Positions 4,435-53,342 of a stretch of 64,000 nt of DNA are shown in pieces. The stretch's first letter is position 1. Each line of letters begins with the position of its first letter. The notes beneath the pieces are model-generated. The model searched no databases, was not told where the DNA came from, and worked only from the letters and a program-made list of their open reading frames with translations. Source of the stretch: Parapedobacter lycopersici. Lineage in GTDB: Bacteria > Bacteroidota > Bacteroidia > Sphingobacteriales > Sphingobacteriaceae. The position numbers and the translations under genes were made by a program. Location: contig NZ_JBEBRB010000001.1 in NCBI RefSeq assembly GCF_040395035.1, positions 81,579 to 145,578 on the forward strand. Direction: 5' to 3'.

Positions 4435-6834
4435 ATGAATCGATTCTTTCTCCTCCACATCAAGCCTATCCCCTTTTTTCGGGCGTTATTAAAACATCTT
4501 TTTTTAGTTGGCTTATTCAGTACCCTTTGGGGTCATCTTCATGCACAGGATACCGGCACATTGACCGGAAAGGTTACCGCCATAGATTCCCTTCCCCTTG
4601 ACAAGGCATCCGTTACCATTGAACGCACCGATTTAGGCACCACAACCGGCACAGACGGGAGATTTGAGTTCCATCTTCCTCCCGGTAAATACGATGTATG
4701 GATACGCACAGTCGGTTATCAGCCCTACCGGAAAACCGTTATTGTTGCACCGGGCAATGTCACTGTTATGGATGCGACATTACAGGAAGACCACCTCAAC
4801 TTAAATGAAGTTGTCGTCAGTGCCACCCGGTACGGCGTAGACCGTCGGGAGGCCCCGGTCATTGTAAATGTGATCAGCCCGAAAATATTCAATGCAACAC
4901 AGTCTGTCGCCATGTCTGAAACACTGAATTACCAACCGGGTGTACGCGTGGAGACCAACTGTCAGAATTGTGGATTTACGCAGGTAAGGCTCAATGGACT
5001 GGGGGGTGCATATTCGCAGATCCTGATCAATAGCCGGCCCGTGTTCAGCGCCCTTAGCAGTGTATACGGCCTTGATCAGATCCCTACCAGCATGGTCGAC
5101 CGCATTGAGGTGGTACGGAGTGGTGGATCAGCGCTATTCGGATCGAATGCCATTGCCGGAACCATCAATGTAATTACCAAGGACCCGGTGGAAAACACCT
5201 GGCAAATCGGTTCCACCAACGCACTGGTCGACGGCTCCAAATGGGACAACACCGTCGATTTCAATGCCTCGATCATCTCGGAGGATCTAGCCACGGGCGT
5301 AACTTTTTACGGCATGAACCGGAATCGGCAGGCATTTGATGCCAATGGCGACGGATTTACGGAAATGACGAAGCTGAAAAACACGACTTTTGGTGGAAAG
5401 GCATTTTATATGCCCTCCGATGTTAACCGAATAACGCTGGATTTCAGTGTGATAAACGAATTCCGCCGCGGGGGAGATCGCCTTGACCTAGCTCCGCATT
5501 TTACCGACATCACGGAACAACTGGATTATAGTACATTTTTGGGTGGATTTACATTCGACCATTACAGTACGGACTATAAAAGCAAGTTTTCAGCTTATAC
5601 TTCTGCTCAGAAAGGAAAACGGAATAGTTTCTATGGCGGCATGGGAGGAAACAGGACACCTGCGGACAGTTTACTGGCGAACAACGCCTACGGCCATACC
5701 GACGACCTGGCATGGGTAGGCGGATTGCAGTTCACACACACCTTTGCGAATGACGTGCTGACCGCGGGAGCCGAACATCAGCTCAACGACACCCAGGATG
5801 AAATCGCCGGATATGCCCGTTTAGTCGACCAGACCGCCAACAGTACCGGGCTTTATGCACAATACGAATGGAAACCAGTGCGTGCATTTACGGCGCTCGT
5901 GGGTGCACGCTATGATTATGTGACCATTAACGGCCGTTACACGCTCCATAACATCAACCGGACTGGCGACATCCGTACCGGTGTGCTCAGTCCACGGCTT
6001 ACGTTGCTGTACAACATGACCGACTACCTCCAGTTCCGGGGTGGTTACGCCCGGGGATTCCGGGCACCACAGGCGTTCAATGAAGACATGCACGTATCCT
6101 CAGTTGGAGGCCAGCAGGTGTTTGTCCTGATTTCCAACAACCTGAAAACAGAATATTCCAACGCATACACGGCGTCGTTAAATTTAATGAAAAATATTGG
6201 AGACATACAGTTCAGCGCATTGGTCGAAGGCTTTTACACCGATCTGCGCAACCCGTTTACAAATGTGTTATCAACGGAGCTGGCAGGTGTGCTGTTTGAG
6301 GAAATGCGGAATGGCGAGGGGGCCTATGTGACCGGCACTAACATCGAACTGAGTATGGCCCCGTCCGCCCGCTATAGCCTGCAGGCCGGAGGCACCGTGC
6401 AACGCTCGCATTATCGCGATGCCCAGGTACTGTTTGACGGCGCCGCGGGGCTCCCGCCAGTAACCACGGATGAATTTGTAAAATCGCCCGATGTATACGG
6501 CTATGTCAGCAGTAACTGGAAAGCAACCGACCAACTCAGCGTCGACGTAACCGGCACATACACAGGATCAATGATCGTTCCGCACGTGGTAAATGACAAC
6601 GCCTTCGTCCTATTGAAAAATACTCCGGAGTTTGTTGAGCTTAACATGCGCCTGGGTTATGTATTTAACGTCAGAAAAGACTTTAGCATAGAATTGAGCG
6701 GAGGGGTGCAAAACGTATTGAATAGCTATCAAAAAGATTTTGATACAGGTCCGGCGAGGGACGCTGACTATATTTACGGCCCGGCAAGGCCACGCACCTA
6801 TTTCCTGGGGTTAAAAATCGGACACTTCCATTAA
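4435..6834 (+). CDS. TonB-dependent outer-membrane receptor with N-terminal carboxypeptidase-regulatory-like domain and CQNC motif in the plug
   Basis: Signal peptide ending LHAQD, LNEVVVSATR TonB box, plug VETNCQNCGFTQVRLNGL...DRIEVVRSGGSALFGSNAIAGTINVITK, C-terminal PRTYFLGLKIGHF. ATG at 4435 preferred over TTG at 4429. Confidence 0.92.
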   Translation: MNRFFLLHIKPIPFFRALLKHLFLVGLFSTLWGHLHAQDTGTLTGKVTAIDSLPLDKASVTIERTDLGTTTGTDGRFEFHLPPGKYDVWIRTVGYQPYRKTVIVAPGNVTVMDATLQEDHLNLNEVVVSATRYGVDRREAPVIVNVISPKIFNATQSVAMSETLNYQPGVRVETNCQNCGFTQVRLNGLGGAYSQILINSRPVFSALSSVYGLDQIPTSMVDRIEVVRSGGSALFGSNAIAGTINVITKDPVENTWQIGSTNALVDGSKWDNTVDFNASIISEDLATGVTFYGMNRNRQAFDANGDGFTEMTKLKNTTFGGKAFYMPSDVNRITLDFSVINEFRRGGDRLDLAPHFTDITEQLDYSTFLGGFTFDHYSTDYKSKFSAYTSAQKGKRNSFYGGMGGNRTPADSLLANNAYGHTDDLAWVGGLQFTHTFANDVLTAGAEHQLNDTQDEIAGYARLVDQTANSTGLYAQYEWKPVRAFTALVGARYDYVTINGRYTLHNINRTGDIRTGVLSPRLTLLYNMTDYLQFRGGYARGFRAPQAFNEDMHVSSVGGQQVFVLISNNLKTEYSNAYTASLNLMKNIGDIQFSALVEGFYTDLRNPFTNVLSTELAGVLFEEMRNGEGAYVTGTNIELSMAPSARYSLQAGGTVQRSHYRDAQVLFDGAAGLPPVTTDEFVKSPDVYGYVSSNWKATDQLSVDVTGTYTGSMIVPHVVNDNAFVLLKNTPEFVELNMRLGYVFNVRKDFSIELSGGVQNVLNSYQKDFDTGPARDADYIYGPARPRTYFLGLKIGHFH

Positions 6835-6849
6835 AATACCTCTATTGAT

Positions 6850-7329
6850 ATGAACCGACGGACATTTATTTCCTATTGTTGCCTTGTGGCGTGCATCGTT
6901 CCCCCAGGGTTTGTCAGCGCACTGCAGAAGCCACAGATTAACTGGCTGACGTTTGAGCAACTATCCGATTCTCTCGCCCGCAACCCGAAAAAAGTGTTAA
7001 TCAGTTTCTATACCGATTGGTGTGTTTATTGTCATAAAATGCACCAGGAGGTTTTCACCAATCCCAAAGTCGTACGTCAGGTGAATACCGCCTATTATGC
7101 GGTAAGGTTTGATGCCGAGTCTACCGATGCGATTCATTTTGACGGGCAACTGTTTTTAAACCGTCGTGCAACCAAACGCAGAAAAGGTTTTCACGATATC
7201 GCCTTACTGTTGGGTTCGCGAAACGGTCAATTTGCCGTACCGGTAACGCTTCTGCTGGATCCGGACTTCCGGATGGTACACCGCAGTTTTCAATACCTGG
7301 ATAGCAAAAAGCTTTTGGAGTTGCTGTAA
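6850..7329 (+). CDS. Exported thioredoxin-family protein (WCVYC)
   Basis: FYTDWCVYCHKM CxxC motif, N-terminal signal; 15 nt after the receptor stop. Confidence 0.85.
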   Translation: MNRRTFISYCCLVACIVPPGFVSALQKPQINWLTFEQLSDSLARNPKKVLISFYTDWCVYCHKMHQEVFTNPKVVRQVNTAYYAVRFDAESTDAIHFDGQLFLNRRATKRRKGFHDIALLLGSRNGQFAVPVTLLLDPDFRMVHRSFQYLDSKKLLELL

Positions 7330-42685: not shown

Positions 42686-43075
42686 TTATTTGCTGATCAT
42701 TGGCAGGTACTTCCGGCGGTTCTCAATAATGACCCAGATATTAGTGGCCATAATAAACAGCGCAACCGGTAATCCCGATGGTGCTACGGTTGAATGTACG
42801 CACAGCACGCCAACTGTAATGGGCAGGATGACAATGGCCCCAAGTGCCCGGGACCTTGCCGGGATAAAAAGCACGCCGCCGATAATTTCGATGGCGGCCA
42901 CCAACGGCATCAGCCAGCTGACTTCCATCAGTGCCATGCTGTCCTTGATCAGCTCTTCCGGCAGGTCAGGGGGTACCGGCATGTAATTAAAAATTTTGTT
43001 CAATCCCGAGTTGATGTAACCCAATCCGAATAAGAGACTCAGTACAAATAAAATTTTCGCTTTCATCGTGTTCAT
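42686..43075 (-). CDS. DoxX-family membrane protein
   Basis: LFGLGYINSGLNK, EIIGGVL, four hydrophobic segments. Confidence 0.82.
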   Translation of the reverse strand: MNTMKAKILFVLSLLFGLGYINSGLNKIFNYMPVPPDLPEELIKDSMALMEVSWLMPLVAAIEIIGGVLFIPARSRALGAIVILPITVGVLCVHSTVAPSGLPVALFIMATNIWVIIENRRKYLPMISK

Positions 43076-43302: not shown

Positions 43303-43330
43303 AATAAAAGAGTTTTTTGTCTTTTATTAA
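43303..43330. promoter_or_regulatory. Putative Rrf2 operator, site 1
   Basis: AATAAAAGA-N8-TCTTTTATT palindrome just upstream of TActTTTG (43339-43346). Confidence 0.7.
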
Positions 43331-43364
43331 AATAACATTACTTTTGTACCATAAACAAACGTGA

Positions 43365-43799
43365 ATGTTCTCTAAAACCTGCGAGTATGCAATAAGGGCT
43401 GTGATCTTCATCGCACGCGAGTCGAAAGACGGACGGCGTGTCGGTGTCCGGGAAATCGCCCAAGGCATCGGTTCACCGGTATATTTCATCGCCAAAATTC
43501 TGCAGGAGCTCAGTAAAAAGGGGATTATCCAGTCGCTGAAAGGTCCCACCGGCGGATTCTATATGGACGGACAATCACTTGATTATACGTTAGCCGATAT
43601 CGTGGTGGCCATTGACGGCGATAAACTGCTCACCGGCTGCGCGCTCGGGCTAAACGAATGTTCGGAGAAACGGCCCTGTCCCCTGCACTTTGAATTCAGG
43701 CATATCCGAAAGGAACTGCACGCACTGCTGGCGCGGACAAAACTGAGTGAATTACAGGATAAATTTGATGCCTCCATCTTTTATCTGGGCAGTAAGTAA
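43365..43799 (+). CDS. Rrf2-family transcriptional regulator with three Fe-S-type cysteines
   Basis: MFSKTCEYAIRA, KILQEL, SLKGPTGGF, CALGLNECSEKRPCPLH. Confidence 0.93.
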   Translation: MFSKTCEYAIRAVIFIARESKDGRRVGVREIAQGIGSPVYFIAKILQELSKKGIIQSLKGPTGGFYMDGQSLDYTLADIVVAIDGDKLLTGCALGLNECSEKRPCPLHFEFRHIRKELHALLARTKLSELQDKFDASIFYLGSK

Positions 43800-43810
43800 A
43801 ATTTTTTGAA

Positions 43811-43838
43811 TTAATAAAAGACAAAAAGGTATTAATAT
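43811..43838. promoter_or_regulatory. Putative Rrf2 operator, site 2
   Basis: ttaataaaagacaaaaa 43811-43827 is the exact reverse complement of 43314-43330. Confidence 0.65.
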
Positions 43839-43845
43839 CGTTTTT

Positions 43846-45969
43846 ATGACACTTTACAACAAAGCAAACCTATCCCTGGTTGGCGTTACATTGCAGGTAC
43901 CCAATATTTATTCATTGCAGCTCGGCTGGTCCGAGTTGGCAATGGGTGCACTCGTCGTTATGCTCCTGGTACTGCTTGGGGTACTGTTATCGTTATACCG
44001 GCGGGTTACTGCCATCCGTAACAGCATCCAGGGTGGGTTTGATATCCGGATCAGACGCCAGCTCAGCCAGCTCAACGGCCGCCAGCTGGACATCGTGCTG
44101 CAACACAAAAAACAGGGTGGTCAAAAACGGGGTACCCTCGCAGCATCGGGAAAGGCGGTGCTTCTGATGATGGCGTTACTGGCCGGCCTCCCTGCGTGGG
44201 CGCAGCCCGACGGTGCTGCTTCGGGTATTGCCTGGGGTAGTGCCGGCATTGTCATCACCCTTGTACTTATACTCATTCCTGTACTCTGCGGCCTCGTTTT
44301 AATGGTTGTGAAGATCCGGCGGACACTAACCCGCTACCAACGCCGGCAGCACAGTGCATTGGCCGATGAATTGGCCCAGTACCTGGATGGACTAACAAAA
44401 AGCGAAGAACTGGATCAGTTGACCAGACGGAAGTCGGCGCTGGACTACCAGCTGACAAATACCGAACTCGCCGGCAACAGCGACGTACACGACAGGCGGG
44501 GCCTGGTAGCTTCTGCGAGCAGCGACGTGAATTTGCCCATTGCCGCGCCAAAAAAACGGGCGGTACGACGGCCCAATATAGACAGTAACCTGGCCAAACT
44601 GGTGCTGTGGTACATCGGCACCTCAGCATTCTGGCTACTATTCGGTACAACGGTTGGCCAATACCTCGGCATCAAATTTCTCGCACCGGATGCCGATCAG
44701 CTAAGCTGGCTGAGTTTTGGCCGGCTCCGTCCGGTACACACCAATGCGGTATTCTGGGGATGGGCATCACTGGGCATGCTGGGATTGGGTTACTACATCG
44801 TACCCCGGGTAAGTAATACGCCCATCGCAAACCTTCGGCACGGCTGGCTCTCGCTGATCCTGATCAACGTTACGGTTGTACTGGGTACCGTCAGCCTCAT
44901 GGCAGGTATCAACAATGGCGGTGGCGAATATCGCGAATATATCTGGCCGGTCATGCTCCCGTTTGCTGTAGCGTTGGTGCTAACCCTGACGAATTTCCTA
45001 AAAACCGTTGCCCGCCGGAAAACTACGGAAATCTACATCTCCAACTGGTATATGATTTCGGCCATCATTTTCACGATTGTCATTGCGCTGGTGGCTTATC
45101 TTCCTTTTTGGCAGAATGGTCTCGGGGAAATTATTGTACAGGGCTACTACATGCACCAGGGCGTAGGTATGTGGTTTATGCTTTTTACACTGGGCATTGT
45201 ATATTACTTCCTGCCGCAGCAGCTTAATAAACCGATCTACTCCTACAGCCTCGGCATCCTCGCTTTCTGGACGCAGATTTTATTTTATACGCTGATTGGC
45301 ACCCACCACTTCATCTTCAGCGCCATTCCATGGTGGCTGCAGACGGTAGCCATCGTGGGCAGTGCGGGTATGGCCATTCCAGTAGTGGCCGGCACCACCA
45401 ATTTCCTGATGACATTCAAAGGCGCTTGGTATAAAGTAAAAGACAGCTACACGCTTCCTTTCTTCCTGGCTGGTATTATCTTCTATTTTACCGGTTCCAT
45501 GCAGGGTACGGCTGAAGCGTTCCGATACACCAACCTCATCTGGCATTTCACCGACTTTACGGTGGCCCACTCGCACCTCACCATGTACGGCATTATCTCG
45601 TTCCTCCTCTGGGGAAGCATGTATGCCGTAGTGCCGCGCCTCACGGGTCAGGAACCTCCCCAGCTCACCGTTGGGGCTCATTTCTGGTTCTCGCTCATCG
45701 GCCTGATGTTCTATACCGTACCGCTCATGTATGGCAGCTCCTTACGCGGCCTGATGTGGATGGACGGAAAGCCGTTTATCGACAGCGTGGTGCTGATGGC
45801 TCCCTATTGGCTGTGGCGGGCCATCGGAGGCACGCTGATGTGGCTCTCACACCTGCTGTTCGCCTATAATCTTTACAAAATGTACAGCACAGACAAGCAA
45901 TCGAACATCGTCGAAGAAGCACTCGAAAAACTGACCGGTAATGACGCTCAGGTCACGCAAACAAAGTAA
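43846..45969 (+). CDS. Divergent cbb3-type (C-family) heme-copper oxidase subunit I with about 245-aa N-terminal extension
   Basis: RLRPVHTNAV (H298), YYMHQGVG (H437), FYTLIGTHH (Y481,H487,H488), TDFTVAHSH (H575,H577). Confidence 0.88.
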   Translation: MTLYNKANLSLVGVTLQVPNIYSLQLGWSELAMGALVVMLLVLLGVLLSLYRRVTAIRNSIQGGFDIRIRRQLSQLNGRQLDIVLQHKKQGGQKRGTLAASGKAVLLMMALLAGLPAWAQPDGAASGIAWGSAGIVITLVLILIPVLCGLVLMVVKIRRTLTRYQRRQHSALADELAQYLDGLTKSEELDQLTRRKSALDYQLTNTELAGNSDVHDRRGLVASASSDVNLPIAAPKKRAVRRPNIDSNLAKLVLWYIGTSAFWLLFGTTVGQYLGIKFLAPDADQLSWLSFGRLRPVHTNAVFWGWASLGMLGLGYYIVPRVSNTPIANLRHGWLSLILINVTVVLGTVSLMAGINNGGGEYREYIWPVMLPFAVALVLTLTNFLKTVARRKTTEIYISNWYMISAIIFTIVIALVAYLPFWQNGLGEIIVQGYYMHQGVGMWFMLFTLGIVYYFLPQQLNKPIYSYSLGILAFWTQILFYTLIGTHHFIFSAIPWWLQTVAIVGSAGMAIPVVAGTTNFLMTFKGAWYKVKDSYTLPFFLAGIIFYFTGSMQGTAEAFRYTNLIWHFTDFTVAHSHLTMYGIISFLLWGSMYAVVPRLTGQEPPQLTVGAHFWFSLIGLMFYTVPLMYGSSLRGLMWMDGKPFIDSVVLMAPYWLWRAIGGTLMWLSHLLFAYNLYKMYSTDKQSNIVEEALEKLTGNDAQVTQTK

Positions 45970-45981
45970 TGATAAGCACCC

Positions 45982-46983
45982 ATGGAATTTTTCAACAACC
46001 ATACTAAACTCTTCACCACCGCCTTTCTCTTCTTTGCGATACTTACGCTGTTCGTGGTGATTATCCCCGCCATTAGCAACCAACAGCGCAATGCCGAACT
46101 GCCGAATGCGGTACCGCTCAGCGAAGATGCCCGGAAGGGCAAGGAACTGTTCATCGCCAACGGTTGTGTCGCCTGTCATACGCAACAAGTGCGCAACGTG
46201 GATATGGACAGCCGTTGGGGAAGCCGGCCGGGCATCGCCGCCGACTATGCGGGCATGAAGCGAATGGATATCTGGCGCAATACGGCAACGCTCGCCGGCA
46301 CTGAGCGCACCGGTCCGGACCTCACCGATGTAGGCAACAGGCAACCGAGTCTCGACTGGAACCTGGTTCACCTCTATAATCCACGGATTGTGGTCATGGA
46401 ATCTATTATGCCAGCTTATCCCTGGTTATTTGAATATAAAACCGTGCTTTCAAAAGGAGACGTGGCTGTCACCGTACCCGAAGCCTTTCTCAACGGGAAG
46501 GAAGGAAAAGTAGTAGCAAAAAAAGAGGCCCTGCAGCTCGTCGCATACCTGCAATCATTGAAACAGGTGGAATTACCGGGAGAAAGCCCGACGCCCCAGT
46601 TCCTCTATAAAAGAGAAGCGGACGCAACAGACAGTTCCGGCGGAACCACCGTGGGTGCCGATGGTGCCCTACTTTACGCCAATAACTGCCAGGCATGCCA
46701 CCAGGCCGACGGAAAAGGGCTGGCCGGCGCATTTCCCTCACTGGCCGGCAGCCCGGTAGTAACGGGCAACGATCTGTCGCTGTACGTAGACATTATCATG
46801 AACGGTTATGACGCACGGCCGGAATATGGTGCCATGCCGGGTGTGGGTACAATGATGGGCTTTTCCGCCGAGGAAGTTGCAGCCATTATTAATCATGAAC
46901 GGACCAGCTGGGGCAACGGCGGCAAACAGGTGACGGCGGAAGAAGTACAGGAAATTTTAACCCTATTGGAAACCGCGAATTAA
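45982..46983 (+). CDS. cbb3-type subunit II (CcoO-like) fused to a second cytochrome c domain
   Basis: GCVACHTQQVR, RTGPDL, HLYNPR, SIMPAYPWL; second CQACH domain with AFPSLAGS and MPG. Confidence 0.9.
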   Translation: MEFFNNHTKLFTTAFLFFAILTLFVVIIPAISNQQRNAELPNAVPLSEDARKGKELFIANGCVACHTQQVRNVDMDSRWGSRPGIAADYAGMKRMDIWRNTATLAGTERTGPDLTDVGNRQPSLDWNLVHLYNPRIVVMESIMPAYPWLFEYKTVLSKGDVAVTVPEAFLNGKEGKVVAKKEALQLVAYLQSLKQVELPGESPTPQFLYKREADATDSSGGTTVGADGALLYANNCQACHQADGKGLAGAFPSLAGSPVVTGNDLSLYVDIIMNGYDARPEYGAMPGVGTMMGFSAEEVAAIINHERTSWGNGGKQVTAEEVQEILTLLETAN

Positions 46984-47103
46984 GCTGCGACTGTCATGTA
47001 CGGCAACAAAAACTCACATACAGATGAAACCTGCAGAAAATACCCATTACACCAAAGACATGAGTAATTCACGCAAGATTCATTGCCTTTAAAAGTAAAT
47101 CAA

Positions 47104-47382
47104 ATGAAAAAAAGAATATATACCCTACTGAGTCTGATGCTTCCCACCCTTACCGGGTTGGCATGCCCGGTGTGTGAAAGGCAGCAGCCGAAACTGTTCC
47201 AGGGAATAACCCACGGCGCAGGGCCAGCCAGCGATTGGGACTACCTGATTATCGCCATTATGGTGGCAATCGTTGTCTTTACGCTCTATTTCTCCGTTAA
47301 GATGCTGGTACGGCCGGGAGAAAACAAGCCGAATCATATTAAACATACCATATTAACTTTGGAAGATGGCAGCGAAAAGTAA
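47104..47382 (+). CDS. Small membrane protein with signal peptide and CPVC motif
   Basis: MKKRIY...GLACPVCERQQP, THGAGP, one TM helix; inside the oxidase operon. Confidence 0.7.
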   Translation: MKKRIYTLLSLMLPTLTGLACPVCERQQPKLFQGITHGAGPASDWDYLIIAIMVAIVVFTLYFSVKMLVRPGENKPNHIKHTILTLEDGSEK

Positions 47383-47773
47383 AGTCATAATCTACATCGA
47401 TGACGAGCCCAACCCCATCGCGGCTTTCGATACCCCGGTTAATTTCGAACTGGATACCCGGAAGCTGGTTGATGGCCTGCACGAGCTCACCATCATCAGT
47501 AAGGATCCGACCGGCAAGGAAGGAATCCGCAAAGTTCCTTTTGAAGTACGGAATGGACCTGCCATCAGCATCGAGGGCATCCGGGAAAACGCCGTGGTGG
47601 ACGGTATTGTGCCACTCATGATCAATGCATACGGCAAAGGCGATCAGAAGGACTTTCTGATCTCAGGGAGTGAAACTCCCCAGAGCATACCTGCCTGGGT
47701 ATGGATTTTGATTATTGGTTTTGCAGGGTGGGCATTATTCTATCTATTTAGGTATTTTGCAATGCCGCTATAA
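47366..47773 (+). CDS. Hypothetical protein, Ig-like beta-rich domain with C-terminal TM anchor
   Basis: FELDTRKLVDGLHELTI...FEVRNGP beta-sandwich pattern; C-terminal WVWILIIGFAGWALFYL; overlaps previous stop. Confidence 0.7.
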   Translation: MAAKSKVIIYIDDEPNPIAAFDTPVNFELDTRKLVDGLHELTIISKDPTGKEGIRKVPFEVRNGPAISIEGIRENAVVDGIVPLMINAYGKGDQKDFLISGSETPQSIPAWVWILIIGFAGWALFYLFRYFAMPL

Positions 47774-47782
47774 GGCGTAAAA

Positions 47783-48190
47783 ATGGGAACGATCATGGAA
47801 AAGAAAAACGACATCACAACAATTGACGATATCCAGCAACTGGTAGACACGTTTTACGGCAAGGTAAGGGAAAATCCATTAATAGGGCCAATCTTCAATG
47901 GCGTAATCGGCGATCGCTGGCCGGAGCATCTCGCAAAAATGTACCGGTTCTGGCAAACCGTGCTGTTCGGCGAACACACGTATTTCGGCAGTCCATTCCC
48001 CCCGCATGCCCAGCTTCCGGTGGATCGGCGGCATTTCGACACCTGGCTGGGACTGTGGCACGCTACCATCGACCAGTTTTTTGAGGGAGAGAAGGCTACA
48101 GAAGCAAAATGGCGGGGCGATAAGATGGCCGAAATGTTTCTTGCCAAAATCGACTACTTCAGAAATAATCAATCATCCCCGCTGTTATGA
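47783..48190 (+). CDS. Group III truncated haemoglobin
   Basis: LVDTFYGKVR, IGPIF, WPEHLAKMYRFW, PFPPH, HFDTWL. Confidence 0.92.
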   Translation: MGTIMEKKNDITTIDDIQQLVDTFYGKVRENPLIGPIFNGVIGDRWPEHLAKMYRFWQTVLFGEHTYFGSPFPPHAQLPVDRRHFDTWLGLWHATIDQFFEGEKATEAKWRGDKMAEMFLAKIDYFRNNQSSPLL

Positions 48191-48630
48191 GTACCCTCGT
48201 TAAACAACCTACTGCGGTTGCCTGTCTTTTTATCTGGATCGGCATGGTCTGCGGCATTAGTTTCCTGGAAGCCTGGCTTAAATTCCGCGCACCCGGTGTC
48301 ACGATGCCGATCGGCCTGGGAATCGGCCGCCTCGTTTTCAATACCCTCAACAAAGTAGAATGGGTGCTTGCCGCCATCGTTGTGGTCACCGCCATGATGC
48401 ACACCAATACGCTGTTTTCAGCCAGGAATGCATTTCTGCTTCTTGCGGTTATCATCCTCATCCTGCAAACGGCGTGGCTGTTGCCCACATTGGATGCCCG
48501 GGCTCAACTGGTTATCGAAAACAAGCCGCTTCCGCCCTCCAATCTGCATTACCTGTTCATTGGGGCGGAAGTGCTGAAAATTGCAGGCCTCTTTGCCGCG
48601 GCAATCGGCCACTTTGAAAAAACTACCTAA
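48187..48630 (+). CDS. Four-TM membrane protein (DUF4149-like)
   Basis: WIGMVCGISFLEAWLKF, GRLVF, WLLPTLDARA; ATGA overlap with the globin gene. Confidence 0.72.
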   Translation: MSTLVKQPTAVACLFIWIGMVCGISFLEAWLKFRAPGVTMPIGLGIGRLVFNTLNKVEWVLAAIVVVTAMMHTNTLFSARNAFLLLAVIILILQTAWLLPTLDARAQLVIENKPLPPSNLHYLFIGAEVLKIAGLFAAAIGHFEKTT

Positions 48631-48640
48631 AAATACCGCC

Positions 48641-49369
48641 ATGGAAATTACAACCCAACATACTGTCGGCCAGGTGGTCGCCAGAGACTACCGCTCGGCC
48701 GCTGTATTCAGCAAGGCCGGAATCGATTTTTGCTGCGGAGGCAACCGGACCATCGACGAAGCCTGCCAGCAGGCAGGTGTCGCCCCTGCTCCCCTGATCG
48801 ACGCCCTTAAAGCCGCCCTTACGACGGATCAGGGTACCGGGGAAAATGACTACGACGCGTGGCCGCTTGACATGCTCGCCGACCATATTGAAGATACACA
48901 TCACCGCTATGTCGAATCCAGGATCTCGGAAATTACGCCACTGCTTCAGAAAATAAAAACAGTGCATGGCGACCGCCATCCGGAACTTGCCCGGATCATG
49001 GACTTGTTTACGGAAGCCGGCGGGGAACTCACTTTGCACATGAAGAAAGAAGAGCTGATGCTCTTCCCGTTTATCCGGCGGATGGCACAGGCACAGCGCC
49101 AAGGGGAACCGCTGCCGCCCTCCCGCTTTGGGACGGTAGCCAATCCGATCGCCATGATGGAGCACGACCACGATGGCGAAGGCGAGCGCTTCCGCCAGAT
49201 TGCCGCGCTGTCCGGAAATTACACTCCCCCATCGGATGCCTGCAACACCTACCGGGTAACCCTGGCCTTGCTGCAGGAATTTGAAGCCGACCTCCACCTG
49301 CATATTCACCTGGAAAATAACATCCTATTTCCGAAAGCAGTCCAAATGGAAAGCGAGCTGTCGTCCTGA
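48641..49369 (+). CDS. ric: Iron-sulfur cluster repair di-iron protein (Ric/ScdA/YtfE)
   Basis: GIDFCCGG, HHRY, HMKKEELMLFP, MMEHDHD, HIHLENNILFP. Start moved to ATG 48641. Confidence 0.95.
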   Translation: MEITTQHTVGQVVARDYRSAAVFSKAGIDFCCGGNRTIDEACQQAGVAPAPLIDALKAALTTDQGTGENDYDAWPLDMLADHIEDTHHRYVESRISEITPLLQKIKTVHGDRHPELARIMDLFTEAGGELTLHMKKEELMLFPFIRRMAQAQRQGEPLPPSRFGTVANPIAMMEHDHDGEGERFRQIAALSGNYTPPSDACNTYRVTLALLQEFEADLHLHIHLENNILFPKAVQMESELSS

Positions 49370-49395
49370 CAGTGGGCCACTCAACAACCGCGATC

Positions 49396-49860
49396 ATGGA
49401 TAACAAGCCACTGAAAAGAAGCGCGTATTTAAAGTCCATCAGCCGCGATCACCACCATGGATTGCTGTTCTGCTGGAAAATCCGGGAAGGGTTCAAACGG
49501 GGTGTCGCCGCGGATCGTATTAAACAGTACGCCGACTGGTTCTGGCGGGCGCACCTCATCGATCATTTCGCCCTGGAAGAGCGGTACATCTTTCCCGTTC
49601 TTGGCGACGGCCACGAGCTGGTGAAACGGGCGCTTGCCGAGCATAGGCGGCTGAAGCGGTTGTTCGAACAGGAAACGGAAGTGTGGCGCTCCCTGAGTTT
49701 GATTGAAGAGGAACTGGACGAACACATCCGTTTTGAGGAGCGGGTGCTGTTCAGCGAGTTACAACGCGTGGCTACCACCCCGCAGCTGGCCGAGATAGCC
49801 GAACACCATGGCGGCGCGGCGCATGCGCCCGAGTGGGGAGACGAATTCTGGAAAGACTAA
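49396..49860 (+). CDS. Hemerythrin-domain protein
   Basis: SRDHHHGL, HF..EERYIFP, EH, HIRFEERVLF. Confidence 0.85.
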   Translation: MDNKPLKRSAYLKSISRDHHHGLLFCWKIREGFKRGVAADRIKQYADWFWRAHLIDHFALEERYIFPVLGDGHELVKRALAEHRRLKRLFEQETEVWRSLSLIEEELDEHIRFEERVLFSELQRVATTPQLAEIAEHHGGAAHAPEWGDEFWKD

Positions 49861-52800
49861 GTGGTCATATCCCGCAGTATGCGGATCGCCTGTTCAATAT
49901 CGGGAACCTGTTCAAAGGCTATGCGAAGGGAACCCTTTACCTCTTTCAGGTTGCAGATTGTCGGATTCTGCTGCACAAACTGCAATACCCTGCCAAACTG
50001 GTCGCTTTCAAAATAGCCCGGATTAGTGGAAAAATAACCCCGGAGCACCTGCTTCTTGAACGAAATTTTCTCAAAGCCGATTTCCCTCCCCAGCCATTGC
50101 AGGCGCAGCGTGTTGAGCAGCTCCTCTACCTGACGGGGCGTCGGACCGAAACGGTCGCGCAGCGATTGCCTAAAAGCTTCCAGTTGCTCTTCATTTTCGA
50201 GTTTGGCAATTTCATTATAGAGATTATACCGCTCACCTACATGGGTAACGTACTCATCGGGAATAAGCACTTCCAGGTCGGTATCAATCTGCGTGAATGA
50301 TACAAAATCACGCGGCTTAACATCCTTGAACAGGTCTGCAAATTCATCGTCCTTCAGTTCCTGTATAGCCTCGTCGAGGATTTTGTGGTACATTTCGAAG
50401 CCGATTTCGGCGATAAAGCCGCTCTGTTCCGCTCCCAGCAGGTTGCCGCTGCCCCGGATATCAAGGTCGCGCATAGCCACGTTAAAGCCGCTGCCGAGCT
50501 CCGAGAATTCCTCGATGGCGCTAAGCCGTTTATAAGCCTCGGCAGTAAGGGTAGACAGCGGTGGACTCAACAGGTAACAGAAGGCCTTTTTATTGGACCT
50601 GCCTACCCGTCCGCGCATCTGATGGAGATCGCTCAGCCCAAACATATGGGCGTGGTTGATGATAATCGTATTGGCATTGGGAATATCAAGGCCTGCCTCA
50701 ATGATGGTTGTGGCTACCAGGACATCGTATTCGTGGTTGATAAACTTGAGCATCACATCCTCAAGCGCATCGCCTTCCAATTGTCCGTGAGCCACGCCAA
50801 CGCGGGCCTGGGGCACCAGCTTCTTGATCATGTTGCCCAGCTGGGGGAGATCAGCCACGCGGTTGTGGATAAAAAACACCTGCCCCCCGCGGTCGATTTC
50901 ATACGAAACAGCCTCCTGGATCAGCGTTTCATTGAAGACGTGGAGTTCGGTCTGCACGGGCTGGCGGTTGGGTGGCGGTGTATTGATGATGCTGAGATCA
51001 CGGGCGCCCATCAATGAAAAATGCAACGTACGCGGAATCGGCGTAGCCGTCAGCGTAAGCGCATCCACGTTGGCACGGAGCTGCTTGAGTTTTTCCTTCA
51101 CTCCAACGCCGAATTTCTGCTCCTCGTCTACGATCATCAGGCCGAGGTCCTTAAACTTCACATCCTTGCTTACCAGCCGGTGTGTGCCGATTATGATATC
51201 CAGTTTACCTTCGGCAAGTCTTGCCAGGGTTGCCTTGATTTCTTTCGATGTCTTAAAACGGTTGATGTAGTCCACCGAGCAGGGAAACCCTTCAAGCCTT
51301 TCGGAAAACGTACGGTAATGCTGCATGGCCAGGATCGTGGTCGGTACCAGCACGGCCACCTGCTTGCTGTCGGCCACCGCCTTGAACGCCGCACGGACGG
51401 CTACTTCCGTTTTACCGAACCCTACGTCGCCGCATACCAGGCGGTCCATCGGGTGGGGCGATTCCATATCGCGCTTGACGTCTAGCGTAGCCTTCTCCTG
51501 ATCGGGGGTATCTTCATAGATAAATGAAGCCTCCAGCTCCGTCTGCAGGTACGTATCGGGGTTAAAGGCATTGCCGGTCTGGGCTTTGCGCTTGGCGTAA
51601 AGCCGGATCAGGTCACGCGCAATATCCTTAACTTTTTTTTTAGTGGTCTTCTTCAGTTTTTCCCACGCATCGGTACCCAGTTTGTTCATTTTGGGTACCG
51701 CACCCTCCTTTCCGCTGTACTTGGAAATGCGGTTGAGGGAATTGATGTTGACATACAGCAGGTCATTGTCTGCATATACCAACCGGATCATCTCCTGCAC
51801 CTTCCCGTTTACCTCCACCTTTTCCAGTCCGGCATACTTGCCGATACCGTGGTCAATATGTGTGATAAAATCCCCCGGCTTCAGCTCACGCAGCTCCTTG
51901 AGCGTAATCGCCTGGGAGCGTTCGTAGCCTTTTTTACGTTTATATTTATAATAACGGTCGAATATCTGGTGGTCAGTATAACAGGCGATGCCCCGGTCCA
52001 GATCGGCGAACCCTTCCCGCAGCGACAGGTGGATGGGTGTAAACGTAATGGATTTATCCAGGTCATCCAGGATAGCGATCAGCCGTTCGATCTGCTTCGG
52101 TGAATCACTGAAAATGCAGTTCTGCATTTTTGCCTGTTCATTTTCCCTGAAATTATGGATCAGCAGGTTAAAGTCCTTATTGAACGAAGGCTGCGGGCGC
52201 TGTGCAAACGTAATGGTGTGCGTGGCGTCGTAAAAAAACTGCTTGCCGAACTCCACGACGGCAAAGTCGCGCAACATGGCCGACAGGTTTTTTTCGTCGA
52301 CAAAATTAAACAACGGGTTTACCCATTCGGGATGCTGCTGTCTATCGGCTTCCGGAAGCGCTTTCCAGAGTTCCTGGGCTTTCTTATATCCCTTACCTAC
52401 CACATCCAGCGTAAACTGGACGTCCTTGAACCAGATGGCGGAATCCGCCGAAACGTATTCCAGCAAAGCGATGTTTCCTTCCGTGAGGAATTTCGCCTGC
52501 ACATTTGGTACAATCGTCACCGTCCGTATTTTGCTGACGGAAAGCTGGCTTTCCACATCAAACGTACGGATGCTATCAATGTCGTTCCCGAAAAACTCAA
52601 TGCGGTAAGGCAAGTCGTTCGAAAAAGAAAAAATATCCACGATACCGCCACGGATCGCGTACTGGCCCGGTTCGTATACGAAGTCGACCCGCTCAAACGC
52701 ATACTCCTGGAGGAATTCATTGATGAAATCGATATCCAATGACGCGTTCTGACTGATTTCCAATGTGTTTTTTTCCAGATCGGTCCGGTTGATCACCTTT

Positions 52801-53189
52801 TCAGCCAATGCTTCGGGGTAAGTGACCACCAACCGGGGCAGTTCCGACACATGGTTCAGCGTGTTCAATGTTTCTGCACGCTGCAGCACATGGGCGCTAT
52901 CGGTTTGGGTAAAATCAAATGCTTTGCGGTACGAAGCCGGGAAGAACAGTACCTGTTTGTCGAACAGGCTCTCCAGGTCACTCAGGAAATACGACGCCTC
53001 CTCATGGGTGGGCAGCACAAACACCATGGGCTTTTCCTGAAGCTGATAGCAAGCCACAGCCACCATCGCATCAGCCGACCCGATCAGTCCCTTAAGCTGG
53101 ACTTTCGGATTTTTTCCGTGCAATGCCTTCGTCAAGGCTGTTACGTGCTCGCTTTGACGATAATTCGCTAATATATCATCGATGCCCAC
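49857..53189 (-). CDS. mfd: Transcription-repair coupling factor
   Basis: CarD-like HIDHGIGKY, DRLVCGDVGFGKTEV, DEEQKFG, TATPIPRTL, QMRGRVGR, RDLDIRG. GTG start at 53189 inferred from TAccTTTG about 20 nt upstream. Confidence 0.97.
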   Translation of the reverse strand: MGIDDILANYRQSEHVTALTKALHGKNPKVQLKGLIGSADAMVAVACYQLQEKPMVFVLPTHEEASYFLSDLESLFDKQVLFFPASYRKAFDFTQTDSAHVLQRAETLNTLNHVSELPRLVVTYPEALAEKVINRTDLEKNTLEISQNASLDIDFINEFLQEYAFERVDFVYEPGQYAIRGGIVDIFSFSNDLPYRIEFFGNDIDSIRTFDVESQLSVSKIRTVTIVPNVQAKFLTEGNIALLEYVSADSAIWFKDVQFTLDVVGKGYKKAQELWKALPEADRQQHPEWVNPLFNFVDEKNLSAMLRDFAVVEFGKQFFYDATHTITFAQRPQPSFNKDFNLLIHNFRENEQAKMQNCIFSDSPKQIERLIAILDDLDKSITFTPIHLSLREGFADLDRGIACYTDHQIFDRYYKYKRKKGYERSQAITLKELRELKPGDFITHIDHGIGKYAGLEKVEVNGKVQEMIRLVYADNDLLYVNINSLNRISKYSGKEGAVPKMNKLGTDAWEKLKKTTKKKVKDIARDLIRLYAKRKAQTGNAFNPDTYLQTELEASFIYEDTPDQEKATLDVKRDMESPHPMDRLVCGDVGFGKTEVAVRAAFKAVADSKQVAVLVPTTILAMQHYRTFSERLEGFPCSVDYINRFKTSKEIKATLARLAEGKLDIIIGTHRLVSKDVKFKDLGLMIVDEEQKFGVGVKEKLKQLRANVDALTLTATPIPRTLHFSLMGARDLSIINTPPPNRQPVQTELHVFNETLIQEAVSYEIDRGGQVFFIHNRVADLPQLGNMIKKLVPQARVGVAHGQLEGDALEDVMLKFINHEYDVLVATTIIEAGLDIPNANTIIINHAHMFGLSDLHQMRGRVGRSNKKAFCYLLSPPLSTLTAEAYKRLSAIEEFSELGSGFNVAMRDLDIRGSGNLLGAEQSGFIAEIGFEMYHKILDEAIQELKDDEFADLFKDVKPRDFVSFTQIDTDLEVLIPDEYVTHVGERYNLYNEIAKLENEEQLEAFRQSLRDRFGPTPRQVEELLNTLRLQWLGREIGFEKISFKKQVLRGYFSTNPGYFESDQFGRVLQFVQQNPTICNLKEVKGSLRIAFEQVPDIEQAIRILRDMTT

Positions 53190-53342
53190 TGCGGTAAAAC
53201 GGGGGCAAAGGTAACGAAAAAACGGCATTTCTGTACACGAAATAAACCTAAATAGCAACGTAGCAGGCACCCACCGCGCAGCAAGCAATTAAATTTCCCG
53301 GATTTTAACCTGATTTGGCGTTAATGTTGCTATATTGTTTTC

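Follow-up and report, generated by a model that had tools for sequence, protein, structure and literature searches.

The window analysed here, a stretch of 64,000 nucleotides from Parapedobacter lycopersici (contig NZ_JBEBRB010000001.1, positions 81,579 to 145,578), carries behind a perfect palindrome a run of nine co-oriented genes that encode, in order, an Rrf2-family regulator, a CcoN-like protein that we call CcoN*, a CcoO-cytochrome c fusion, the small proteins o99 and o135, a globin, a membrane protein with four predicted transmembrane (TM) helices, a RIC/ScdA-type protein and a hemerythrin-domain protein (Table 1). The subject of this report is CcoN*, a C-family haem-copper oxidase (HCO) subunit I in which the metal ligands are retained and several residues of the canonical proton channel are replaced. 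Residues 251–664 match the COX1 family of Pfam (PF00115, 273 bits), and the ccoN equivalog model of NCBIfam (TIGR00780) scores 250.7 bits against a cut-off of 583.15, so that by the NCBI criterion CcoN* is a homologue of ccoN and not an equivalog. The closest PDB chains in a phmmer search were the cbb3 CcoN subunits 9g6b_A and 3mk7_A (E about 1e-59), the next matches were ba3 oxidases (E about 5e-5), and NorB was absent from the matches at E≤0.01. In a Foldseek search the top 7 matches were all cbb3 CcoN (E 2e-14), and the NorB chain 3o0r_B followed with an E of 3e-6. The adjacent gene (P0002) encodes the FixO/CcoO partner (PF02433, 91.9 bits, cut-off 29.6). Ahead of the catalytic core lies an N-terminal extension that has predicted TM helices at approximately residues 28–61 and 133–157 and a conserved amphipathic segment; it is found in a crown group of homologues of 657–731 amino acids and is absent from the basal members G124 and G149.

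To map functional residues, CcoN* was aligned by phmmer with Pseudomonas stutzeri CcoN (3mk7_A, E 2e-58; ungapped over query residues 451–577, with an offset of +230), and conservation was scored in 119 full-length relatives from the Sphingobacteriales, Chitinophagales and Cytophagales and in 81 sequences from related loci. All six His ligands are present: H298 and H577 for the low-spin haem b (H60 and H347 in P. stutzeri), H575 for haem b3 (H345), and H437, H487 and H488 for CuB (H207, H257 and H258). The helix-VII Tyr Y251 is matched by Y481, which would form the covalent cross-link, and the Ca ligand E122 by E361. In helix VI the sequence is MHQGVGMWFM, which lacks the glutamate of the NO reductase (NOR) motif HLWVEG. 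In sequence the O2-reducing site is complete, with three CuB His, both haem ligand pairs, the cross-link Tyr and the Ca ligand. Along the proton path, Y223, N289 and Y317 are retained as Y453, N519 and Y547; N333 aligns with N563. Four canonical positions are replaced, T215 by M445 (codon 45178–45180), S240 by G470 (45253–45255), H243 by A473 (45262–45264) and E323, the Glu hydrogen-bonded to the proximal His of haem b3, by Q553 (45502–45504), and polar residues are gained at E557 (M327 in P. stutzeri; 45514–45516), T448 (45187–45189), Q477 (45274–45276) and T549 (45490–45492). Of the canonical K(C) channel set, reportedly T215, Y223, S240, H243, N289, Y317 and Y251 (Buschmann 2010; Hemp 2007), 3 of the 7 residues are thus apolar in CcoN*. 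The aligned ligand, Tyr, kept and replaced residues are identical in 119 of 119 relatives and are likewise invariant in the 81 related-locus sequences; where these four residues are replaced in CcoN*, the canonical paralogue encoded in this genome (P0124) still has T, S, H and E. A first-pass annotation of this DNA, which had counted spacings against the P. stutzeri numbering, had claimed that the metal ligands and the cross-link Tyr are kept, that the NOR glutamate is missing, and that T215, S240, H243 and E323 are changed while Y223 is kept and E557 is new; the formal alignment reproduces every one of these mappings, and the changes are real. The four replacements in the CcoN* lineage have been held fixed by selection.

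How unusual these positions are was judged from a library of representatives at 50% identity, of which 66 near-full-length sequences were aligned together with P0124, those with six His being used for a tree; 31 other intact, non-canonical C-family representatives were then compared with 6 canonical ones. The combination T215-S240-H243-E323 occupies one compact cluster of the tree, with P0124 inside it. Outside that cluster, position 323 is Q in 29 of the 31 intact representatives, position 243 is G in 26 and position 327 is Q or E in 26, and the helix-X motif H[AS]HLxxxG occurs in almost all non-canonical representatives, the named members of which come from Planctomycetota, Burkholderiales (Ottowia, Alicycliphilus, Diaphorobacter) and Anaerolineae. 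E323Q, H243A, E557 and the HxHL motif are thus the majority non-canonical state and not alterations peculiar to CcoN*. In contrast, T215 is conserved in 29 of 31 and S240 in 26 of 31 of the same representatives, and both in 6 of 6 canonical ones, so that their loss is a real, lineage-specific remodelling. The earlier proposal that the K-like channel is remodelled consequently holds for T215 and S240, while the change at H243 is a common one; the suggested retuning on the haem b3 side (E323 to Q, new E557) describes the ordinary state of non-canonical enzymes, and the likeness seen between AHSHLTMYG and NorB is ruled out as a NorB signature. As judged from these alignments, the Glu/His pair E323 and H243 marks only the canonical, well-studied clade, and the P. 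stutzeri reference is itself the special one.

The same library contained two sets of sequences that differ from CcoN* at the active site. A group of CcoN-like proteins of 465–666 amino acids (P0171, P0217, P0237, P0254, P0255–P0262, P0269 and P0273) retains few or none of the six His and of the Tyr, mostly lost here, while positions like Y223 and Y317 are still present; these look like a sizeable group of metal-free membrane proteins with the CcoN fold. Representative P0272, whose cluster includes WP_425652636.1 from Brevibacillus sp., keeps the six His, but its cross-link Tyr is replaced by Ile and its residue 215 is Met. By the rule that NORs lack this Tyr, this Bacillota protein, annotated as cbb3-type subunit I, may have arisen from the C-family as a NOR-like enzyme. 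Among Bacteroidota, 3 loci (L171–L173, in genomes G116, G033 and G037) encode a third C-family type of 456–563 amino acids that scores approximately 285 bits against the variant profile, keeps T215, has G243 and Q323 and, in 2 of the 3, keeps S240; CcoO and cytochrome c are present at these loci, and the neighbours include no Rrf2, RIC or globin gene.

The nearest sisters of the variant lineage, P0128 (Planctomycetota) and P0129, also have Gly in place of S240; in the column of P. stutzeri L247 they have His, and the Bacteroidota variant has Gln (Q477). In representatives with an intact S240 this residue is L, I or V, and 477 is polar throughout the variant and sister clades, in which 470 is Gly. 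Residues 470, 473, 477 and 481 form an i, i+3, i+7, i+11 helical stripe, a periodicity by which Q477 would face the channel at a level between the His that was lost and the cross-link Tyr. The two basal Bacteroidota members G124 and G149, found in a phylum-wide sample (56–59% identity), keep T215 with Val at 218 and already have G470, A473, Q477, Q553 and E557. In the order implied by these sequences, S240 and H243 gave way to Gly and Ala early in the lineage, together with the appearance of a polar residue at 477, a helical turn above and on the same face. T215 was replaced by Met later and only in the crown group, in which the 245-amino-acid extension was gained too; this change usually came with a polar residue a turn below, at 448. 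In the crown group, position 218 (T448) is Thr in 116 of 119 relatives and in 76 of 81 locus sequences (Asn in G095), and the T549 position is T or S in all variant sequences. Q477 and T549 therefore look like fixed replacements and T448 like a frequent, dispensable one, and the cytoplasmic K(C)-type channel looks rewired, not lost.

The cytoplasmic entrance of this channel may be found in o135, a protein with 62–87% identity among related loci whose C-terminal anchor carries a candidate channel-entry Glu (E103, codon 47672–47674). The canonical CcoP of the same genome has the anchor motif KE(115)LDNPVPAW, in which E115 corresponds to residue 49 of P. stutzeri CcoP by the offset to 3mk7_C (query 105 = chain 39), and the spacing E-x5-P-x-W is common to the o135 and CcoP anchors. 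The GSE motif containing E103 occurs in at least 95% of 77 aligned sequences. A Pfam search gave a faint FixP_N match to o135 (E 0.27) and a PDB sequence search only chance-level matches; hhalign comparison with 62 canonical CcoP anchors gave a P of 8.7e-5 in the E103 register, as against 0.08–0.36 for control single-TM anchors. The variant operon contains no dihaem CcoP, and one cytochrome c domain is fused to CcoO. The basal homologues of o135 in G124 and G149, with 274–285 amino acids, have a CcoP-like architecture in which the immunoglobulin (Ig)-like domain and the anchor (AETPSPIPSW) are followed by a cbb3-type cytochrome c, and FixP_N matches them with an E of 0.0028. On this comparison, o135 appears to be a remnant of the CcoP anchor in which the putative entry Glu survives, the cytochrome domain of the crown group having apparently moved to CcoO while the anchor was retained as a separate gene. 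That this separate gene is strongly conserved argues that the cytoplasmic entrance is still used. A different proton source, which the first-pass annotation had considered, becomes less likely in view of the entry-register Glu on o135, the kept Y453, N519, Y547 and Y481 and the gained Q477, T448 and T549, new polar groups on the helix faces concerned. G149 encodes both the CcoP-like Ig-anchor-cytochrome protein and a CcoO-cytochrome c fusion.

The remaining genes of the run were compared across a synteny sample of 80 related loci. The four oxidase genes (ccoN*, the ccoO fusion, o99 and o135) occur together in all of them, and the Rrf2 gene lies upstream of ccoN* in 63 of 80. The CcoO fusion, which stands in place of a separate CcoO plus a dihaem CcoP, follows ccoN* in every locus whose contig reaches far enough. 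Orthologues of o99 were found in 77 loci, the remaining loci ending at contig edges; this protein carries an invariant CPxCE...GITHGxGP motif, its conservation starts at MKK (residue 8), and it is possibly a subunit or a metal-handling factor. The globin gene lies downstream in most related loci and the RIC and hemerythrin genes in many. Because the listed TTG start of the RIC gene falls within the preceding gene, translation probably begins at the ATG of residue 21. At the other end of the run, the hemerythrin reading frame overlaps the stop region of mfd by its final 4 bases.

Table 1. Features of the variant oxidase locus and of loci compared with it (window coordinates unless another locus is named).
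Feature	Coordinates	Strand	Description
DoxX-family membrane protein	42686–43075	-	divergent; bounds the operon upstream
Operator	43303..43328	.	perfect palindrome AATAAAAGA-N8-TCTTTTATT over the Rrf2 promoter
Rrf2-family regulator	43365..43799	+	144 aa; Pfam PF02082, 89.6 bits; C92-x6-C99-x5-C105
ccoN* reading frame (P0001)	43846..45969	+	707 aa; COX1/CcoN-like
CcoN* N-terminal extension	43846..44580	+	about 245 aa; no family match
CcoN* catalytic core, C-family haem-copper subunit I	44581..45969	+	PF00115, PDB and Foldseek matches
Helices VI–X of CcoN* (region of the altered residues)	45154..45576	+	exactly from codon H437 to codon H577
CcoO-cytochrome c class-I fusion	45982..46983	+	333 aa; FixO 91.9 bits, Cytochrome_CBB3 48.8 bits; CVACH and CQACH
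o99, small membrane protein	47083..47382	+	99 aa as listed; no Pfam match; one TM helix
o135	47366..47773	+	135 aa; cytoplasmic Ig-like domain and C-terminal anchor GSE(103)TPQSIPAW-TM
Truncated (bacterial-like) globin	47783..48190	+	135 aa; PF01152, 29.8 bits
Predicted four-TM membrane protein	48187..48630	+	147 aa; no significant Pfam match; in about one third of related loci
RIC/YtfE/ScdA-type di-iron protein	48581..49369	+	ScdA_N 76.7 bits, Hemerythrin 64.5 bits
Hemerythrin-domain protein	49372..49860	+	162 aa; Hemerythrin 37.3 bits; last gene of the run
mfd (transcription-repair coupling factor)	49857–53288	-	TRCF/Mfd domains; converges on the operon
Basal CcoP-like proteins	L168 (G124) 5013–5870; L169 (G149) 6105–6929		Ig-like domain and FixP_N-like anchor followed by a single cytochrome c domain
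Canonical operon of the same genome, outside the window	G000:C1:205000–214500 (L087)		fused ccoNO (709 aa), 63-aa CcoQ-like reading frame

The palindromic operator lies over a putative promoter with the Bacteroidetes consensus geometry: its spacer holds a -33-like TTTG (43316–43319) located 19 nt ahead of a -7-like TACTTTTG (43339–43346), a TAnnTTTG box 12 nt downstream of the operator. It is conserved 5' of the Rrf2 gene or of ccoN* in 77 of 80 related loci and still precedes ccoN* where the Rrf2 gene is not adjacent. A position weight matrix scan of the 3.04-Mb genome of P. lycopersici found one strong operator (39.6 bits), the next best site scoring 16.9, and a wider regulon in this genome was rejected because the scan gave no second operator. 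In relatives, extra operators precede RIC genes where these are unlinked, as well as DUF2249-hemerythrin and DUF1858-DUF2249 genes. One relative has an operator-like site (29 bits) 5' of a dihaem cytochrome c peroxidase gene (L013, 3244–4533), and the regulon of some genomes may thus include a peroxide or NO-related periplasmic defence. The spacer between the Rrf2 gene and ccoN* (43800–43845) contains a second AATAAAAGA half-site (43813–43821) with no matching right arm, perhaps the remnant of an operator or a weak one inside the operon. The regulator itself, as read from its sequence, has in C92, C99 and C105 the three-Cys pattern of iron-sulphur (Fe-S)-binding Rrf2 proteins; among the NCBIfam models only that of the superfamily scores above its cut-off, and the NsrR, IscR and RirA models all fall below theirs.

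The P. lycopersici genome also encodes two A-type oxidases and a canonical ccoNO-Q-P-G-H operon. Besides the genes listed in Table 1, the canonical operon contains a monohaem CcoP (297 amino acids, one CAACH), ccoG, a FixH-like gene and a DsbD/TauE-like membrane protein, and the assembly genes that are missing from the variant operon could be shared from here. A search of the genome found no NirK, NirS, NosZ, NOR, Hmp-type globin or cytochrome bd, and a role in denitrification was ruled out for this organism on the lack of NirK, NirS and NosZ. The variant, an accessory enzyme, is present in 4 genomes of an even sample of 151 from Bacteroidota, 3 of which also have a canonical-type copy, and in at least 583 species genomes overall. 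A literature search gave no paper on the CcoN* clade, none on the channel residues and none on NsrR in these genera.

Altogether, we interpret CcoN* as the catalytic subunit of a little-studied cbb3-type (C-family) HCO variant that is accessory and specific to Bacteroidota; the explanation as a whole, including the rewired channel and the NO-stress operon, we judge to have an even chance of being right. The gene context (Rrf2, RIC, globin and hemerythrin) fits a physiological role that differs from that of the canonical enzyme, and the most likely role predicted from it is that of an NO-stress-induced oxidase, by which respiration would probably be sustained, or NO removed, during such stress. 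In this scheme the Rrf2 regulator would act as a repressor on the palindrome of its own operon, where the -33 box lies inside the operator, and damage to its Fe-S cluster by NO or a related redox insult would derepress the operon. CcoN*, the CcoO-cytochrome c fusion, o99 and o135 would form a complex, transcribed together with the globin, RIC and hemerythrin genes. The complex would carry electrons to O2 while the ordinary oxidases are inhibited by NO, with protons entering from the cytoplasm through o135 E103, the rewired K(C) path and the kept upper residues Y453, N519, Y547 and Y481, and the globin, RIC and hemerythrin would handle NO and repair Fe-S centres. It would probably also reduce some NO, as canonical cbb3 can: the P. 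stutzeri enzyme reduces NO and nitrite to N2O (PMC8780969). In Haloferax, DUF2249 proteins and a truncated globin are induced together with denitrification genes (PMC11218638).

Several observations weigh against this interpretation. The AlphaFold2 model of full-length CcoN*, built from a 50-sequence clade alignment, has a mean predicted local distance difference test (pLDDT) score of 61, and residues 482–509 and 554–568, in the active-site helices, score below 50; with no confident structural model, the continuity of the channel is based on helical periodicity only. The substitutions arose once or twice, so that their covariation carries no statistical weight, and S240 is also missing in two exceptions outside the variant and sister clades, P0179, which retains H243, and G037i, with Phe at 247. 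That T448 must stand in for T215 is made less likely by 5 of 81 crown-group members that combine M445 with Met or Pro at 448. The channel reading also leans on the roles reported for T215 and S240 in canonical enzymes (Buschmann 2010; Hemp 2007; Lee 2011) and for CcoP E49 as the channel-entry Glu on the P. stutzeri anchor (Buschmann 2010; Lee 2011). On the regulatory side, the NsrR model NF008240 gives the regulator 29.9 bits against a cut-off of 182, the operator differs from the reported NsrR boxes, and RIC, hemerythrin and globin could equally well answer to O2, iron or redox stress.

This last point leads to the alternative that the locus is not an NO system at all, the Rrf2 protein sensing O2, redox state or iron/Fe-S status and the enzyme being an alternative oxidase for hypoxia or Fe-S stress, with globin and hemerythrins as O2 carriers or buffers. 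C-family oxidases are classical high-affinity, microaerobic enzymes, hemerythrin and truncated globins bind O2, and the SUF-regulator, IscR and RirA models score similar to or above the NsrR model for this regulator, all below cut-off. We nevertheless find this alternative rather unlikely, because RIC/ScdA is a hallmark member of NO regulons and has its own operator where it is unlinked, because the DUF2249 and hemerythrin targets are tied to N-oxide metabolism, and because the genome already has a canonical high-affinity cbb3 with assembly genes. The converse proposal is that the enzyme is a dedicated NOR, Tyr-containing and derived from the C-family, which detoxifies NO in a non-denitrifier and whose channel and haem b3 changes suit two-electron NO chemistry. 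The NO-stress-type gene company and the dedicated Fe-S-type regulator would agree with this, the genome has no other NOR, Hmp or flavodiiron-type candidate among the families searched, and NO reductase activity exists already in canonical cbb3 (PMC8780969). The active site, however, makes it quite improbable: none of the 119 relatives departs from the three CuB His or the cross-link Tyr, whereas characterised and predicted HCO-type NORs are all without Tyr and cNOR/qNOR add a Glu (PMC11214002) that helix VI of CcoN* does not have. CcoN is moreover a far stronger match than NorB, and Q553/E557 are common to many C-family enzymes with no NO context.

Two further alternatives concern the channel. 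The substitutions might be lineage markers with no functional effect, in an enzyme that behaves as an ordinary cbb3 and differs only in its regulation. Half of the listed differences are indeed the common state outside the canonical clade, and it is general knowledge that water often replaces polar side chains in proton paths. We consider this reading somewhat unlikely all the same, since nearly every other intact representative of the C-family retains T215 and S240, mutating them reportedly cripples canonical enzymes (Hemp et al. 2007), and the replacements together with the new polar residues are strictly conserved across three orders. At the other extreme, the lower K(C) channel could be blocked at M445, G470 and A473, where 3 of 7 canonical channel residues have become apolar and one is a bulky Met (a few members being without T448 as well); protons would then come from the periplasm as in cNOR, and turnover would be non-electrogenic, with no pumping. 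This is very improbable in our view, for Y453, N519 and Y547 do not vary among the relatives while Q477 and T549 have been gained, and the retention of a CcoP-anchor-like subunit with an invariant entry-register Glu after the loss of its cytochrome domain would be hard to explain if the entry were unused. The most economical reading is an Rrf2-repressed accessory oxidase, induced by NO stress, whose rewired channel would still function.

Our understanding of cbb3 oxidases comes almost entirely from one proteobacterial clade, and supposed hallmarks of the family, such as E323 tuning haem b3 and H243 in the channel, are peculiarities of that clade. The Bacteroidota lineage is in this respect a natural experiment in rebuilding a single proton channel, in which the two best-conserved lower residues have been replaced and the entry Glu appears to have been kept on a pared-down CcoP anchor. 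The fixed link to an Fe-S regulator, RIC, globin and hemerythrin in a genome that has no Hmp, NOR or cytochrome bd suggests an unrecognised way in which aerobic soil bacteria respire through NO or consume it, which bears on the inference of NO and N2O turnover from genomes annotated only as containing a cbb3 oxidase. A more far-reaching version, which we hold to be unlikely, is that this Tyr-containing C-family enzyme, with its rebuilt path and neutral haem b3 partner, is NO-insensitive or is an electrogenic, energy-conserving NO scavenger that uses cytoplasmic protons. If true, non-denitrifying soil Bacteroidota would defend themselves against NO by respiration instead of by Hmp, NOR or cytochrome bd, and the rule that HCO enzymes acting on NO have lost the cross-link Tyr would be broken.

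Compared with known systems, the variant resembles most the canonical cbb3 oxidases CcoNOQP (P. stutzeri 3MK7/5DJQ, and the fused CcoNO-CcoQ-CcoP of the same genome), with which it shares the 12-helix fold, the six His, the Tyr, the Ca-ligand Glu, Y223/N289/Y317, a monohaem partner of FixO type and, apparently, an anchor resembling FixP_N with a putative entry Glu. It differs from them in its identity of approximately 29%, in its score below the TIGR00780 cut-off, in T215M, S240G, H243A, E323Q and M327E and the residues Q477, T448 and T549, in the two extra TM helices of its 245-amino-acid extension, and in having no dihaem CcoP, the cytochrome c being fused to CcoO and the anchor being a separate Ig-like protein. 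Its operon also has an extra CPxC membrane protein, has no ccoGHIS genes, and is placed under Rrf2 and beside NO-stress genes. The non-canonical C-family oxidases of Planctomycetota, Burkholderiales, Anaerolineae and other groups, annotated only as cbb3-type subunit I, share Q323, Q/E327, G/A243 and H[AS]HLxxxG with the variant, and the sisters P0128/P0129 also share S240G and the polar residue at 247; unlike the variant, these oxidases keep T215 and have no N-terminal extension. The three Bacteroidota examples of the intermediate group differ from it in having neighbours without Rrf2, RIC and globin. The cNOR/qNOR, eNOR, sNOR, gNOR, nNOR and bNOR enzymes and the 'N2O red' family of Murali et al. 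2024 share with it the HCO fold and the association with N-oxide genes, and cNOR, like the variant, has a cytochrome c partner. Unlike CcoN*, which is nearer to CcoN in sequence and fold searches, NorB of cNOR/qNOR has the added Glu ligand and no active-site Tyr, and all six new families of Murali et al. lack this Tyr (PMC11214002). The retained Tyr and CuB His rule out 'N2O red' or the new NOR families as the home of CcoN*. NsrR regulons (hmp, ytfE/ric, nnrS) have in common with this locus a three-Cys Rrf2 protein, an autoregulatory palindrome over the promoter and RIC and globin targets. The operator AATAAAAGA-N8-TCTTTTATT and the below-cut-off score of the regulator set the locus apart from them, as do its main target, an HCO operon, and a regulon that is a single operon in its own genome. 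The orphan subunits CcoN3 and CcoN4 of Pseudomonas aeruginosa, which reportedly give cbb3 isoforms tolerant to nitrite or cyanide (Hirai et al. 2016), are similar to the variant in providing an alternative catalytic subunit under respiratory inhibitors; they are close paralogues that use the canonical CcoO and CcoP, whereas the variant is a separate complex with its own subunits and its own regulator.

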